Positions 1,994 through 54,039 are shown, numbered from the stretch's first letter. The stretch is 64,000 nt of DNA from Mobula birostris (GCF_030028105.1 NC_092384.1:37703553-37767552); one strand, 5' to 3'. Translations and numbers: made by a program. Notes: generated by a model from the letters alone, not told the origin.

Positions 1994-2287
1994 GTTACTT
2001 GTGATACAGCAGGACTAGTATATTTTGACTCAAATACATGGCTCCCAAATTAGCCAACGTTTCATAGAAATAGTTAAAAAGATGTAAAATAAACAAACTG
2101 TGTAACAAATTATTTAAATGAAATGCAGAACATACTAGAGTACTACCAATACTACTACAGTACTATAGAAGTATGTATCAGTTCCTAATACTTATCAGTA
2201 GAGGAATTCATCCACATCCTGTTCTTTTGACTATAAAGGAACAAAATCAGCATAGACACCTCGTGCAGATAATGGACTGCTTTCGTA

Positions 2288-2920
2288 AGACCATAAGACA
2301 TAGGAACAGAATTAGGCCATTCAGCCCATCGAGTCCACTCCACCACCATTCCATCATGGCTGATTCTGGATCCCGTTCAACCCCATACACCTGCTGTTCA
2401 CTATATCCTTTGATGCCCTGACCAATTAGGAAACTGTCAAGTTCTGCTTTAAATATACCCATGGACTTGGCTTCCATCGCAGTCTACGGCAGACATTGCA
2501 CAGATTCACTACTCTCTGGCTGAAAAAATTCCTCCTTACCTCTGTTCTGAAAGGTCTCCCCTCAATTTTGAAGCTGTGACCTTTTAGAACAGAGGTAAGG
2601 AAGAATTTCTAAAGGTAAGTCCTACCGTCCTTCATAGAGTAGAATGACATTTGCAATTTTCCAGTCCTCCGAAACCAGCCCAGTGAATCTAGTGGTCTTT
2701 CAAAAAATGAGTGTTTCTTGAAAGATCACTGATCATGCCTCTATAATTTCTTCAGCTACCTCTTTCAGACTCCTCCACTGTAGTCTGTCTGGCTGAGGTA
2801 AGTTATCTACCTTGAGACCCTTTATCTTCCTCAGCATCTTCTCCTCAGTAATAGCAACTGCACTCACTTTTGCTCCCTGACACTCACATTTCTGGCATGC
2901 TATTGGTATCTTCCACACTT
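2288..2920 (-). mobile_element. CR1 LINE, internally deleted, with 3' tail
   Basis: CR1 ORF2 remnants in ORFs 2733..2918 and 2247..2477 (EAKSMGIFKAELDSFL...GIKGY); TCTTATGG-type tail ends at about 2288. Confidence 0.8.
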
Positions 2921-3071
2921 AAAGAGTAACACACAAATACTTACTCACTTCTTATTAATATTACCCTGGGTGCTGTAGTTTCCTCCATCTCCAGATATGT
3001 CAATTGTTAGGTGAATTGCCTACTGTAAATTTCTCCGAGTGAAAGGAACTAGTGGGAGAAACAAGGTGTGT

Positions 3072-3257
3072 GGGGGGGGAGAGAGGGGGGAGAGGGGGGG
3101 GAGAGAGGGGGGAGAGAGGGGGGAGAGAGGGGGGGAGAGAGGGGGGGAGAGAGGGGGGGAGAGAGGGGGTGAGAGAGGGGGTGAGAGAGGGGGTGAGAGA
3201 GGGGGGGAGAGAGGGGGGGAGAGAGGGGGGGAGAGAGGGGGGGAGAGAGGGGGGGAG
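3072..3257 (+). repeat. About 12-bp G/A-rich tandem repeat (GAGAGAGGGGGG)n inside a V-SINE remnant
   Basis: Read directly from the sequence; it produces the SPPL/GERG low-complexity ORFs. Confidence 0.95.
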
Positions 3258-4630
3258 AAGAAAAGTGGAAGAAAGGTGATTGCTCTGTGGGTCTTTGTGA
3301 GAGACTCCATGGGTTGAATGGACTCTTGCATCATGAGGGAATACCAGAAAATGACAAAGCATACACAGTTATAGCATAAGACACAGAAGCAGAATTATGC
3401 CATTCAGCCCATTGAGTCTGCTATACCATTCCATCCTGGCTGATTTATTATCAATGTCCTGACTAGTCAGGAACCTATCTCCACTTTAAACATACCCGAT
3501 GACTCGGCCTGCATAGCTGTCATTCTCCTGCTTTCCTGCTCAAAATTAAGTGAAAAAGATCACCATTTAATGTGCTAGATTGAAACAACTCGGACATCAG
3601 CCATTGTCCTTCCATCATTAAACTTGCTAAAGTTTGATCTAATGTACAATAAATCCAGAACTCAAAATGAACAGGAACTTAAAGACAAATAAGATAAATA
3701 TTTACTGCAAAACCACATGAACATCACTAACATTTCAATGGTATTTGGTAGACAAAGTTAGATAAAGGGTACAAAAAAGCACTAATTAATCTACTATCGC
3801 CTAACATGATCAAATTAACACATTCCAGTTGCAATATGAAGAACTAAATTACAGCACTAAGAAAAGAAAATCTGGAAAAATGCCATTTTGGAAGTTCTGA
3901 ACTAGTCTGAGAAGTCTTTTACTTCCAAGTTCCCACTCTGCTTAAAGATCTCAGATAATTAGTGCTCAAACTTTAAAACTCTACATTTTCTCTCACAACT
4001 GCCCTTTCTCAAAATTTGTCCCTTTTTCTTTCGCAGGCACCATCATGAGGATAAATTCTGCATGTGCATGGTCCAAATGATGAATTGACATATGGGAGAC
4101 AAGATTTTAAAAGAGACAATTGCCATTGATTAGTGAAGGCAAAATACATGGTATATTTTCTTCCATCTGACACAACTGTTCTGCTGTGTTTCCTGTGATT
4201 AACCGAGGCCAGACCTCCAGTTTTTTTTAACCCCCCCCCCACAAAACATCAGAGAGAAACAGTCTATTTGTCAAATAATGCACCAAGAACACAAACATTG
4301 TTTGCACCTATGGCAAGTACAGATCTACTGAATTATTTCGTGAAATATGTAGGGTTAAATTAGTTTCTGAAGTATGTAGGATTAAATTATACATGATAAC
4401 AAATCATTAAAAGCAGTAGTTTGTAAAAGATCAAGAGACAATAACCAACTTGATATGTGTGAATTAACAGCTATGACATCACATACAGTACATTAGTTAA
4501 AAATGGACTTGAATGAAAAAATATCTAAAGTCTGAAATCAGCAATTCAAGCGCACATTACAACCATACTTATTTCAAACCACAATACATTCAGATTATTT
4601 TAATAAATTGATAAAATATGTATTAGCTAC

Positions 4631-4895
4631 CTTATGTAAGCAGGTGTCCACTACCCAGTTGCAGACTTTTTCAAGGTCATCCGTTACCACAAGTCTAGAT
4701 CTAGCAAACTCACAGAGCTCCTCATTCGACATCACATCTCAGATGCCATCACAAGCCAGTATAATAAACTCATCTTCTACTCCAAGAATCTCATACACGT
4801 CAGGTTCTGGTGATGTTCCTCAGCTGCTCTGTAGGCCCTTTCCCATCGACACACTTGTAATCATAGTCCCCCAGGGCTCTTGACACAGCCAGTGA
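4631..4895 (-). pseudogene. PPM1B: PPM1B (PP2C-beta) exon fragment, disabled
   Basis: Translates [25 protein letters not shown] / [60 protein letters not shown]. Has a frameshift near 4815 and W->TGA at 4741-4739. Residues GDYDY, CVDGK, VCNW and CLHK favour PPM1B over PPM1A. Ends at AAG|GTAGCT. Confidence 0.9.
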
Positions 4896-5419
4896 TCATA
4901 CAATCCTTTCAACGATTGTATCCTCCAAGTCTTCGTTTTCATTGTAATACTCAAGATGAATGTCGATACCGTCAAAATCTTCATAGTTCCTAACTTGTTG
5001 AAGAAGTGAAATTGTTTTATTTTCACTCTCAGCATTTTTTGGCATCTCCAAGCCTGAATGCTTGAAACTGCAGAGAGCAAACAGTTCTGAATTGTCCTAC
5101 CGATAAGCTCATGCTAACTATCAGTAACAAAAATCTCTGCTTTTTGAACACAGACACAACTGACACAATTTAATAACTGTTTGCTCTAAGCATGGTGTAG
5201 TGTCTAATGGCCACGCAAGTACATGCAACTGACGCTAGTTATAAACTGTTTATCAATAGTCTCCTGCCCCAATTAGGCAGCATAGTGTCCCAAATAAACC
5301 ATGGGAGTCCCAGCCACATTCTTGATCAGTCTTTGTTCTTTAAGAGTTGTCCCAAATAAGTGGCTGTCCTGATTAACCAATGGCCCCAATAAATGGAATC
5401 CACTGTATATCGTATGTAT

Positions 5420-28311: not shown

Positions 28312-28410
28312 CTGCAACACACAAAAAAAACAAGCGCAAGTCGCACCTGTTCCGCTGCAACAACGTGACCGCAGCCCGAGCTTGCCGCCTGCTGAGCGCC
28401 ACCAGCTTAC

Positions 28411-28435
28411 CTTCCGCTTGCTCCAGGGAGTTCAT
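28411..28435 (-). CDS. CNEP1R1: CNEP1R1 exon 1 (start codon)
   Basis: ATGAACTCCCTGGAGCAAGCGGAAG|gtaagc encodes MNSLEQAE. The six exons total 378 nt, i.e. 125 aa plus stop. Confidence 0.96.
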
Positions 28436-48829: not shown

Positions 48830-51769
48830 TATGTAAGGACAAGGAATACCCTATCCATGTTGTGCTGGTGATGCAGATGTGTGAGAAATGAAGACGTGGG
48901 TGAGGGCAGCATTGATGGTGGTGGAAGGGAAGCCCTGTTTCATTAAATGCTCCATCTGTGTTACCTATGCAGTATGTGGTTAAAAACTCACTGTACTATC
49001 TCACTGCTATTTAATACTATTTGCTCATAATTATTGAGCTTCTCATGTTTCAAATAATTTCCTTTTAAATATTATCTAACCACTTGTCCCATTTTATGGT
49101 TTTTCACCTGACTCTCAACCTCGATGCTTAAAAATATGGATCCAATGTTTTTTAGGAAATCCTTTCAGTGAGGTAAGTAACATCCTTTCCCCTTGGATTA
49201 AACAAATATAAAGCTAAAATCATTGTCCAAACTGAATGCTTTAACCCCTATGGGTAAATAACTATATTCTGTTATATACTGTATAAAAGTTGGGTGGTTA
49301 GAATTTTTGTTGTTGTCCAGCAATAATTAAAAAAAGGACAATGTCAGAGTTTACATATCAACTAGCAAAATAGTTTTTTGCCATACTCCTAAAGTTAAGA
49401 AAATATTAAGGACATTTGAATTACTGTTGCCATCCATTGTATCACTGTGTGATCAATATGAAATCATAATGAAGTTTCAGCAAGGACAAGCATAATTTTG
49501 TAAAATATTGCTTTAAAGGAGTAGGGAGGTGCTCTTAACTTTGATAATAATTTGAATACTGGTGTCCAAGTACAGTTTTTTTAATTCATAGGAGATTGGA
49601 AAATTTTCAAAACTCTTAAGAGTTCCTTACCAATGTGACTGCAATTCTAACTGATAAGGAAGTCCTGAAGAAGGGTTTTGGCCTGAAATGTTCACTGCTT
49701 GTTCATTTCCTTGGATGCTGTCAGACCTGCTGAGTTCCTCCACAATTCTGTGTGTTTTGCTTTGCATTTCCAGCATTTGCAGGATTTCTTGTTTATGATT
49801 GCAATTCATGCTTAAAAGATGAAATGGGGAATTAGATTATTGTATTTATTCCTCAATATCAAAGTTCTCTTTACTAAAAAATATAAACATAATGGATAAA
49901 ATATTGGACAAATGTATCAAAATAATGTTGCATTTTAGTCATATCAGAAGACCTCAATTTTGTTTGTTGTCAAGAGAAGCAAAAGGTACTTTAAAGTAAT
50001 TGTCTGAAGAAGACTGAAGTGTGGTTTGATATTTGGTGGTCCAGACGTGAACTAAGTTTCCATGTTCAAATGTCCTCCAACTTATGAGGCCCATCTCTGG
50101 GATGTGGAACCCCAGAATTATAAGAACATGAAAGGAGACTATTTAGTAAGCTACATCCATGAGAGTCCTTGCAAGAGCAATCCATTTACTTCTAATTCTC
50201 TGACCTATAGGGCCCTACAAATTCTTCTGCAGATAATTGTCAGCGGTCTTTTCAATGTTGTAGTTTAATCTGTGCCGTTTATTACGATGTTTATTTTTTT
50301 AAATGCCTCAGATCACTAGATGGTCTTTGTGCTGATTGTCTTCATTCATCCCTTATACCTGATTCTACCAAGACATACAAATATCTCGCTATCAATTCTG
50401 TCCATACCATTCATAATTTTAAGTACCTCTGTGAGATTTCCTAGTAACATCAACTTACATGAACTCCAGTTTTGTCTTTATTTTATTTTATTGAGATACA
50501 GTGTGGAATACGCTCTTTGAGTTCAATCCCCCGATTTAATCCTAGCCTAATCTCAGGATAATTTACAATGACCAACTAACTTAAATTTGCACTATTGAAG
50601 CCCTGCAATTCTTAAAATCCTTCATGATAAATCTCTTCTGACCATTTCCAAAGCCTTCACATCTTGTGAAAAACGCAACTAAACACAGTATTTTGGCTAT
50701 AGTATAAACAGTGCTTTGTGAAAGTTCATGAATTCTGCTCTCACTTTAAGTAAATTTACACCTCTATTCCCAAAGGTCTCTGCTTATGCATTGTTCTTAG
50801 AATTATGCTTTCAGCTGAAAACATAAACTGCATTTCTCTGTTTTAAATTTTGGCTGTTAACCATCCCACCTGCTTATTACATTTCCTAGAAGTCTATATT
50901 TCCATGCATCTTCCAAGAAACGTGCTGAGTGCTTATTTGGAAACCATACCCTGCATAGCTAAGTCAAAATCATTAATAAAGTAGTGATCCTAATGCTGAT
51001 ATCTGGGGACTCTTCAATTTACCACCAATTCAAAAACACGTCTTTAATTCATTGCTCTCTGTATTTAGCCAATGTGTTATCCATATTGCATGGAGTCTTT
51101 TATGAATGCACTGTCTGTTTGATAACAAGTTGTAAATAGCCTTTTTTAAAATAACAAGATTTTTTTCATGATAAGCATAAGATATTCTGCAGATGCTGGA
51201 AATTTTGAGGAACACATACAAAGTGCTGGAGGAACTCACAAGATCAGGCAGCATTTATAGACATTTTGGGACAAAATCCTTTATCAGGACTTTTTTAATT
51301 TAAAATGTCATAGGGTAATAGTAAACTTATTGGGCTTCTGGAGATTAATTACAAACATTAATAACAAGTGTAAGGAACAACTGTTTACTTTTTTACTTAA
51401 GGTTAGTGAACTTATTCGATCCTTTTAACTTCAGCACCCACATATTGAAACATTGAAGTCAGATACCAGCTGGCCCATGAGGAAGACATAGCCAATGGTG
51501 AGCATTATCCAGCCCATTTTGTTACCAGATGACAGATTTTGTAAAATACCTATGTGTATACAAAACAGTTGCATACAAAGGCTGGGTGCAATATTTAAAC
51601 AATTCTATTTAAACAGTTTTAGTGCTTCAGAGAATCCTCAGCCCATGTTATTGATTTATTGACTGAACCATGTTTTAATTCTTTCAAGGCCAGTAAGAAA
51701 GTTAAAACTTAAGGACTTAAAGTGTGCATTAAATTTTATTTCTCTCCAAGCCCTTCTAAAAAGATAAAG

Positions 51770-52840
51770 TGCAAAATCTGAAATATCAAGGTATTGGCAT
51801 TCAAGATGAGGTAATAAATCGATTAGATGTTCATTCTGTGAGAGAAGCCAGAGTGGTAGTGTACGGTTTACTCTCTGACTGGAGGCCCATGACTAGTGAT
51901 GTGCTGCAGGGCTCAGCACCGGGTCCATTGTTTGTCATCCATATCAAGCATCTGGATGATAATATGGTAAACTGGACTGGCAAATCTGCAGCTGACACTA
52001 AGATTGGGGGTGGAGTGGACAGCGAGAAAGATTATCAAACCTTGCAGCTGGAAAAATGGCAGAAGAGATTTACTGCAAACAGGAGTCAGGTGTTGCACTT
52101 TTGCAGGACAAACCAGGGTATGATGTACATGGTGAGTGGTAGGGCACTGAGGAGTGCAGTAGAACAGAAGCATCTGGGAATACAGATCGATAATTCCTTG
52201 AAAGTGGTATCACAGGTAGATAGGGTCATAAAGAAAGCTTTTGGCACATTGACCTTCATAAATCAGAGTACTGAGTACAGGAGTTGGGTTATTAAATTGA
52301 AGTTGTTTAAGATGTTGGCGAAGCCTAATCTGGAGTATTATGTGCAGTTTTGGTCACAAACCTACAGGAAAGATGTCAATAAGATTGAAAGAGTGCAGAG
52401 AAAATTTACAAGGATATTGCCAGGAGTGGCGGACCTGAGCTATATGGAAAGATTGAATAGGTTAGGTCTTTTATCCCCTAAAGTGCAGAAAAATGAAGAG
52501 ATTATGAAAGAGAAATACAAAATTATTAGGAGTATAGAAAGGGTAAATGCACGCAGGCTTTTTCCCCTGGCTGAGACTAGAACTAGAGGTCATCAGTTAT
52601 GGGTGAAAAGTAAAATGTTTAAGGGGAACAAGGGGGAACCTCTTCACTCAGAAGAGGTGAGAGTGTGGAATGAGTTGCCAGCGGAAGTGGTGGATGCGGG
52701 TTTGATTTCAACATTTAAGAGAAAGTTGGACAGGTACATGGATGGGAGGGCTATGGTCTGGGTGCAGGTCATTGGGACAAGGCAGATTAATAGTTTAGCA
52801 TGGGCTGAAGAGAGTGTTTCTGTTCTGTGGTGTTCAATGA
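51770..52840 (+). mobile_element. CR1 LINE ORF2 3' fragment
   Basis: 363-aa ORF with LEYYVQFWS, IERVQRKFTRILPG and VWNELP motifs; the catalytic FADD is degenerate (SAAD). Confidence 0.88.
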
Positions 52841-54039
52841 CTATTAAAAGTGGGAAATAATTAAAATAAAAACTAAATGATTTGCCTGTTGCATAAACAA
52901 AATGTTCCTTTTAGTGGTGAATAGTACTTTCTGATCTTATGATGCTTCAAATTTTGCTTTCAGTTCAGTTCGAGGGTTTCAAGGGTACATTTAGTGTCTG
53001 AGAAATGTATACAATATACATCCTGAAATTCTTTTTCTTCGCAACCATCCAAGAAAACAGAGGGATGCCCCAAAGAATGAATGACAGTTAAATGTTAGAA
53101 CCCCAAATATAGTACTGTATTTGCAATGCATTTTAAGGTTTGGGTCTTTTAGTCTGTACTTATCGATTTAAATGATTATTTAGTCTTTAAAAAAGATACA
53201 CTTCCAGTATCAGCTCATAAATCTCTGCATACCTTCTGCTACAAGTTCAAGTTTATTGTCATTCAATCATTAACTGTGCCGCCAAACAAATCAATGTTCC
53301 TCCGGACCAAGGTGCAGAACACAGTACATGTAACTTACACTAACACAAAGTAATATTACCAGAAAGAACTTATATAATAAGGTCTATTTATGACACAAGT
53401 TAAAAGTAAGCATTAACACTTCTGGCACTTCAATTATGATGAGACTTGGATAGTGACAGGAGTTCAGTTGTCTCATGGCCTGGGAGAAGTTGTTGTTTCC
53501 TATTCATACCTCTATATCATTATATAATTCTGATGAAGAGTCTCAGTCTGAATTGTTGACTGTCTATTTCCCTCCATAGATGCTGCTTGACTCGTCGAGT
53601 TCCCCAGCATCTTAATGCATGCATTTCTAAATGACAATAAATGAGGACTGAGTGTCCTCATAATCTAATCTAATCTAATTTTGTGTGTTGCTATTTCTGC
53701 ATGCAGTTCTCCTAAATGTAGTCTAGCCAATGTTTAATACAGAGTTAGTGTAACTTCCCTGGTTTTCAGTTCTATCCCTCCAGAATGATATAATTTCAGT
53801 TTGTTTTTATCTTCCAGACTTGCTAACCTGTAGCAGAGCACTGAAGTATTTACATTATGGGATTCCTTTAGTTCCTGTACCTCTCCTAGTATTGTGATCT
53901 CCCTTGTTCTTTCCTTTCTTACTACCAACATGTATTCCCTCTACAGTGACACAGAGAAAATGTCAGAAGCTGTTATTTAAAGATGTTACAGTAGGACACT
54001 TGGAAAAAAAATAAAAAGAGAAAGGATGGTTTTGTGGAA

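Follow-up and report, generated by a model that had tools for sequence, protein, structure and literature searches.

An unspliced piece of PPM1B, comprising the end of its large coding exon, the splice donor and part of the following intron, was found inserted into a Tigger-like DNA transposon in Mobula birostris, and its 3' end lies within the tail of a sense-oriented CR1 retroposon that occupies the same place in the donor intron. The window, that is, the whole stretch of 64,000 nucleotides that was analyzed, is G000:C19:37703553-37767552 of a 4.0-Gb assembly. The reading preferred here, at a little better than an even chance, is that the young CR1 tail (tail 2) in nascent PPM1B RNA was bound in trans by a CR1 reverse transcriptase, which then copied upstream from it. 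CR1 priming of some kind, all routes taken together, is very probable. The likelihoods attached to mechanisms in this text are judgements and were not computed.

The insertion target was a non-autonomous Tigger/pogo-like DNA transposon on the minus strand, which we take to belong to that family from its TA and CAGTG ends. Its 5' part (4896..5405, minus strand) opens with TA followed by a CAGTGG terminal repeat and showed 81-84% identity to 39 other scored copies from 5340 candidates; with 30 copies aligned, 34 of 386 strict columns differed from the commonest letter of the family. The 3' part (1994..2287, minus strand) carries a right terminal repeat without its outer end. As described in an earlier note on this DNA, the element breaks after ATTGTATGA at 4896 and is followed by 265 nt of PPM1B coding sequence (4895-4631), up to DTCLHK and then GT; it resumes at 2287. 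Most of the uninterrupted copies (n=30 aligned) read TATGA once at this point, in the context ATTG-TATGA-A(G/A)GCAG. No Tigger sequence was missing at the insertion, and five bases occurred twice. The left copy of the motif, TATGA (4896..4900, minus strand), shares its final GA with the first two bases of the donor match, while the right copy (2283..2287, minus strand) reads TACGA and overlaps the CR1 tail repeat over TATG. These are the near-duplicated flanks reported previously as TCATA/TCGTA, read here on the minus strand at 4900-4896 and 2287-2283. The right motif was likely TATGA originally, and a contig of organism E that spans the 3' junction likely has T at 2285, giving a perfect TATGA, as judged from matching contig-end distances. 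The junctions are compatible with a range from a 5-bp duplication to a 1-bp loss, and the duplication is not independent proof of a staggered nick because donor microhomology (GA and TATG) overlaps both ends.

The insert had been assigned to intron 5 of HEATR3. Five clean exons of a HEAT-repeat gene were delimited on the minus strand by splice sites and frame (15620-15483, 9212-9040, 8730-8643, 8026-7914 and 6640-6531), with a GT donor at each, an AG acceptor at each of exons 2-5, and 622 nt (207 codons) without a stop; exon 2 gave a HEAT Pfam match. The insert lies downstream of exon 5 in the same orientation as this gene, and a TMEM188/CNEP1R1 gene is its neighbor. The position after exon 5 of a HEAT-repeat gene fits that assignment; the name HEATR3 is presumed and is consistent with that neighbor, and exon 6 was not found by a crude scan of the rest of the window and a 10-kb neighboring stretch. 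In the TMEM188/CNEP1R1-like gene (ATG at 28435) the first intron, 28312-28410 on the minus strand, is 99 nt long, in frame and stop-free; its retention would add 33 residues near the N-terminus.

Positions 4897-2286 of the window (minus strand) formed an unbroken colinear match to C9:32739423-32741868, on another contig. A query of 4600-4900 against the 4.0-Gb assembly matched three places, namely the window, C9:32739423-32739715 (92%) and a paralogue on contig C1 (75%). The latter, which is PPM1A-like, was rejected as donor on the strength of 75% against 92% and of an intron without a match. The parent exon (C9:32738843-32739688, 282 codons) encodes a protein whose best PDB match was a chain named PPM1B at 587 bits, with PPM1A at 494 bits. 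The donor transcription unit consists of this exon, a GT donor and a next exon 35,420 nt farther on, all on the same strand as the CR1 tail. The segment begins within the large coding exon, of which it holds the last 266 nt, and runs through the GT donor into the 35,420-nt intron for about 2.2 kb.

The 3' part of the exon in the window (codons 194-282; 4631..4897, minus strand) matched C9:32739423-32739715 at 92% and carries a stop at W246, a 3-nt deletion and a 4-nt insertion, the last absent from contigs of three other organisms. Judged from these lesions the PPM1B copy is dead. The copied exon had 15 differences from the parent over 263 sites, 8 of them non-synonymous and 7 synonymous, and the unique intron had 170 over 1289 aligned sites, a contrast as would be expected if the parent exon were under selection and both introns were drifting. 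The intron runs unspliced from the GT donor (2925..4630, minus strand) in colinear match to the parent, and queries with its unique parts found the parent as the sole match in the assembly besides repeats. The roughly 1.7 kb of intron-like DNA in the window was thus correctly ascribed to PPM1B, 4630-2286 being colinear with the parent intron, and the retained intron and lack of poly(A) agree with the earlier view that this is not an ordinary processed pseudogene. A (CCCCCCTCTCT)n-like expansion at about 3090-3260 in the copy is missing from the parent; it is an 11-12-nt C/T-rich repeat, for which the parent shows just a short CT run.

Other Tigger copies with the same cargo, for which the earlier note had proposed a search, were absent from the assembly, where the segment occurs twice, in the parent and in the window. 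The 5' junction was bridged by contigs in three of four public runs (organisms A, B and F) under the 31-letter rule of the tool, and run X1 may be the assembly's own sample; a contig of organism C reaches 29 letters at this junction, below that rule. The 3' junction was bridged in at least one of the four runs, among the matches listed, by an 84-nt contig of organism E with 9 differences. A long contig of organism F over the intron differed at 43 positions over about 590 nt and at 59 over about 540 nt; the insertion event is old, provided that this contig is orthologous to the copy. Among the joints listed for these runs, whose index matches near-identical DNA, no empty site appeared, and no RNA run was listed as containing the sequence. 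An assembly chimera, envisaged at the outset as an explanation, was rejected on the evidence of contigs from other organisms across both junctions. A multicopy Pack-Tigger was also rejected, there being a single cargo copy with a truncated right terminal repeat. An active Tigger that captured the segment and spread with it (Pack-type transposition) would account for cargo inside a terminal-inverted-repeat element, but no further cargo-bearing copy was present in the assembly; that reading, or a chimera, is scarcely credible.

The 3' end of the insertion had been read as one co-oriented CR1 with an internal deletion, its tail abutting the resumed Tigger. The orientation and the abutment held, a sense CR1 tail ending at 2286, but in place of a single deleted element there is an old CR1 fragment joined to a 5'-truncated tail that is much younger and has a fold-back of 31 nt. 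An older sense CR1 3' end (tail 1; 3371..3539, minus strand) had decayed before copying and was passed over, as indicated by derived letters shared with the parent. It lies 1.08 kb upstream of tail 2, and the copy runs past it to end at the young tail. An old CR1 ORF2 fragment follows (2620..2916, minus strand), which by the spacing in intact copies normally lies about 1.1 kb upstream of the tail region. The 31-nt fold-back (2578..2608), an inverted duplicate of 2526-2556 by its sequence, stands at the 5' end of tail 2. Tail 2 itself (2286..2577, minus strand) is a young 5'-truncated CR1 3' end with a hairpin and TCTTATGG repeat, 85-88% identical to unrelated copies, and forms the 3' end of the insertion. 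We take the clade to be CR1 from its motifs and from the type of tail, a hairpin with an 8-nt terminal microsatellite. RVT_1 was present in a similar element of the window, and body-to-tail continuity over 1.8 kb was seen in other copies. At 51760-52860 of the window (plus strand) a 366-codon stop-free frame resembles a decayed C-terminal part of CR1 ORF2, with no Pfam match above the cut-off.

In the 35.4-kb parent intron, tail 2 is sense-oriented and lies 1.9-2.2 kb from the start, beside an older CR1 fragment, and the tail 2 hairpin was found in both the parent and the window. The alignment to the PPM1B locus suggested in the earlier note ran colinearly through the intron into this sense CR1, which is rearranged in the same way and ends at the same 3' position in both; a parent intron lacking a CR1 here, which would have made the CR1 a later insertion, was not what was found, the parent carrying its CR1 in the same place. 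For the region 2925-2600 the parent was the best match, at 339 bits against 209 for the next. A search of the 4.0 Gb for the fold-back junction pattern (31 nt, at most one mismatch) found it twice, once in the parent and once in the copy, which places the origin of tail 2, at its 5' end at least, in the parent. The copy terminates inside the terminal TCTTATGG repeat of the parent CR1, an 8-nt repeat. Its periodic tail is 13 nt long, inside the range of 58 family copies; the first repeat of the parent tail is mutated, and the parent's periodic-tail length was left out of this comparison. In unselected DNA, 12 CR1 tail matches were counted in 217 kb, or about 1 per 18 kb. All three CR1 tails detected in the 58.5-kb donor stretch lie inside the 35-kb intron in sense to PPM1B (C9:32740970, 32741867 and 32755602). 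The young tail of the parent (L005:3050-3480) has the old CR1 ORF2 fragment on one side and, on the other, a tailless CR1 3' fragment, likewise old, which starts at about the same element coordinate as the fold-back arm, with about 1.1 kb of CR1 body missing. This arrangement may be a CR1-into-CR1 insertion with target deletion.

The relative ages of these pieces were estimated from derived sites, defined as departures from the commonest letter of each conserved column among 28 body copies and 58 tail copies. Half of the tail reference set was selected for resemblance to the window tail and half for resemblance to the parent tail (29 copies each); it replaced a one-sided reference of 29 window-like tails, which was biased (33 parent-only and 17 copy-only changes). 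The CR1 body had 19 shared derived sites among 233, and the older tail 1 (3452-3371) had 7 among 77 strict columns, together 26 of 310. In tail 2 there was 1 in 246, and unrelated pairs share 0.59 on average. The contrast between 26/310 and 1/246 was significant (Fisher p=3e-6), with a 95% upper bound of about 1.9% on change shared in tail 2 before copying, while the neighboring CR1 pieces were about 8% decayed at that time. These counts indicate that tail 2 was nearly new when copying occurred. Changes confined to one lineage were similar across the pieces, both on the parent side (22/310 in the old pieces and 21/246 in tail 2, p=0.53) and on the copy side (14/310 and 15/246, p=0.45), and the parent tail therefore has no excess of changes that would mark it as older, which is what direct copying from a fresh tail would give. 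The parent lineage exceeded the copy in changes in all three polarised parts (17:11, 5:3 and 21:15), a difference not significant on these counts; it hints that the two sites may mutate at regionally different rates. The Tigger host element differed from its family's commonest letters by 8.8-12.3%, against 4.5-6.1% for post-insertion change.

Raw divergence between copy and parent was higher in tail 2 (53/283) than in the unique intron (170/1289; p=0.019), and CpG decay in the young element may account for the excess. For the last 300 nt, 39 other copies scored 85-88%, and parent and copy each fell outside the other's best 40 tail matches; a tree of 60 tail sequences was star-like, with parent and copy unpaired. 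Such non-pairing is expected for a fresh tail and equally for a tail from another CR1, and the distal 280 nt of tail 2 would fit descent from the parent or from another CR1 equally. The chance level of shared derived sites in tail 2 (1/246) and its greater divergence than the intron would suit a template switch, in which synthesis started on another active CR1 RNA and jumped to PPM1B pre-mRNA within the near-identical tail 2, so that the copying would again be driven by CR1 from an RNA template; template switching by CR1 reverse transcriptase has been proposed for SINE heads (PMC5729268). Under this model, however, the absence of excess age in the parent tail would be a coincidence, the fold-back and the first forward bases did come from the parent, and two RNAs would be needed at the target. 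The template switch is rated unlikely.

Much the same sequence as under direct priming is predicted by the template switch and by DNA-templated extension, because the tail was still near its master. In the latter a CR1 insertion at the Tigger would have been followed by invasion of the PPM1B DNA tail by the cDNA end or by a later break, and by extension over 2.3 kb. This would explain, with no RNA template, where the copy ends, why it is unspliced and why the tail had to be young and near-identical. Two chromosomes must meet, though, and the 5' junction must be restored exactly at the duplicated motif. Nor does this model predict the sense orientation in the gene, a point on which n=1 says little, all three tails of the intron being sense. 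It is regarded as quite unlikely.

Repair of a break in the Tigger from distant DNA by way of GA and TATG, with the end at a CR1 tail arising by chance, would make the insertion a single-copy Pack-TIR formed by gap filling. The single copy, the old host element, the internal breakpoints and the microhomology at both ends agree with this, and those two microhomologies suffice to rebuild the 5-bp duplication. A DNA-repair model could also draw on a co-oriented Tigger found 1,626 nt upstream of where the donor match begins. Yet of the 21 TATG sites in the first 3 kb of the intron, and of the 149 over its full length, 2 lie in tail 2; the insertion ended at the fresh tail, and the donor is on C9 while the target is on C19. 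The donor-side Tigger, moreover, gave no sequence, sharing with the window copy 1 rare letter where the family range is 0-5. Gap filling was rated very unlikely, although the microhomology at the junctions and the nearby Tigger leave it some weight. The donor-side element is near full length and co-oriented with the target element (L004:7028-7797, C9:32737028-32737797), and Tigger matches are few, 4 in 428 kb, all 4 in the two gene regions. As a source of the flanks it was rejected, at 71% identity and with no excess of shared rare letters, and it is either a coincidence or a homology guide.

Priming by CR1 on PPM1B pre-mRNA, as put forward in the earlier note, draws support from the colinearity to the tail repeat, from the shared endpoint and from the youth of tail 2, which had not been foreseen. 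The copy lies wholly within the PPM1B transcription unit, with tail 2 in sense to PPM1B. A 5'-truncated CR1 end with its fold-back lay in sense in the PPM1B intron beside an older CR1 fragment, and was nearly unchanged at the time of copying, when the neighboring CR1 pieces were decayed. Under the preferred reading, CR1 ORF2 protein would then have recognized the intact hairpin and 8-nt repeat in the pre-mRNA, the Tigger would have been nicked at TATGA, and the tail repeat would have paired with the target over TATG. Reverse transcription of 2.6 kb would have passed through the intron and the donor site and stopped in the exon, the 5' end being joined over the 2-nt GA overlap. The copy has since decayed and is common to several related organisms. 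The RNA template is one that we infer, because the 5-bp duplication is equally explained by microhomology. The unspliced copy bears no mark of RNA, having lost no intron and gained no poly(A), and neither is expected for this span and LINE clade. Priming midway in a 35-kb intron calls for internal priming or for transcription that terminates early; AATAAA-type hexamers stand 175 and 270 nt past tail 2 in the parent and may be a weak hint of early PPM1B RNA ends. Binding of stringent LINE proteins to the stem-loop of their own 3' tail is described for zebrafish L2 in PMC4176376, where CR1 is named among clades with shared-tail SINE pairs. CR1 tails are described as a hairpin plus an 8-bp microsatellite (PMC5729268), and an overlap of one to several bp between CR1-clade 3' ends and the target is cited from Ichiyanagi and Okada (2008) in PMC6007223.

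According to a review (PMC5470649), sequence recognition by CR1 limits the RNAs open to retroposition; the elements are held to copy RNAs bearing their own 3' end and no others, the usual account of why CR1-dominated genomes hold few retrocopies. A count of 14,081 retrocopies in cartilaginous fishes is given in a preprint in which non-mammalian counts are linked to CR1/Tx1 content (bioRxiv 10.64898/2026.06.26.734816). The locus described here supplies a donor, junctions and relative ages, and so shows how CR1 stringency could be met in cis by an intronic tail. The PPM1B copy is a single dead event, and its value is mechanistic. It is possible, if somewhat doubtful, that a gene with a fresh sense intronic CR1 end is briefly a substrate for CR1 reverse transcriptase, and that RNA-based exon shuffling by this route is recurrent and overlooked in CR1-rich genomes. 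If this were true, upstream exons and splice donors would be copied elsewhere, and the products would keep introns and be mis-filed as DNA duplications. The signature by which such products could be recognized is an intron-retaining gene piece with its end at a young sense CR1 tail that the donor also has.

Copying of unspliced host exon-intron RNA primed from a CR1 tail was not reported in any paper listed by the literature searches, which covered few subscription journals. The PPM1B copy resembles processed pseudogenes as a 5'-truncated dead coding copy at a new site; it differs from them in keeping the intron, lacking poly(A) and ending 2.2 kb into the intron. Retrocopy pipelines that require intron loss would class it as a DNA pseudogene. 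In the ATM case attributed to Ejima and Yang in 2003, L1 is said to have mobilized in trans an unspliced exon with flanking intron; that copy reportedly ends at a cryptic poly(A) site and used L1, whereas the PPM1B copy ends at a CR1 tail. With single-copy Pack-TIRs the insertion shares host sequence in an old TIR element, a single copy and short microhomologies. For Pack-TIRs formed by gap filling, a median microhomology of 2 bp and 59.8% intrachromosomal donors are given in PMC8277862; here, in contrast, at most 1 bp of Tigger was lost, the donor lies on a different chromosome and the filling sequence has a young LINE tail at its end.

5' transduction by L1 and SVA is itself known, and includes intronic L1 driven by a host promoter (RAP1GDS1/L1PA2) and mRNA/L1 chimeras (bioRxiv 10.1101/2025.02.02.635956) as well as SVA_F1 (PMC3287187). 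The likeness is that host sequence upstream of a sense intronic retroelement moves with the element, and three structural marks of 5' transduction were found here: a source with the same upstream flank, an end at the element's own 3' end, and sense orientation in the covering transcription unit. In the L1 and SVA cases given in those sources mostly exons spliced to near-full-length elements are moved, whereas unspliced RNA is proposed here together with a 290-nt non-coding CR1 end; L1 is relaxed and poly(A)-reading, whereas the CR1 end here has no poly(A) and its clade is stringent. What is new is the unspliced exon and intron carried by a short intronic CR1 tail, with a passage through RNA that we infer. 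CR1-tailed SINEs and chimeras such as TguSINE1/PittSINE (PMC5729268) and the HE1/HER1 pair of sharks and rays (PMC3747384) are similar in that a foreign 5' part is mobilized in trans by a CR1 tail of hairpin and 8-nt microsatellite. Their heads are short, tRNA-derived and transcribed by Pol III, and they amplify, whereas the head here is 2.3 kb of exon and intron of a protein gene in a single copy. Unlike in those SINEs, the tail was already attached in the donor gene.
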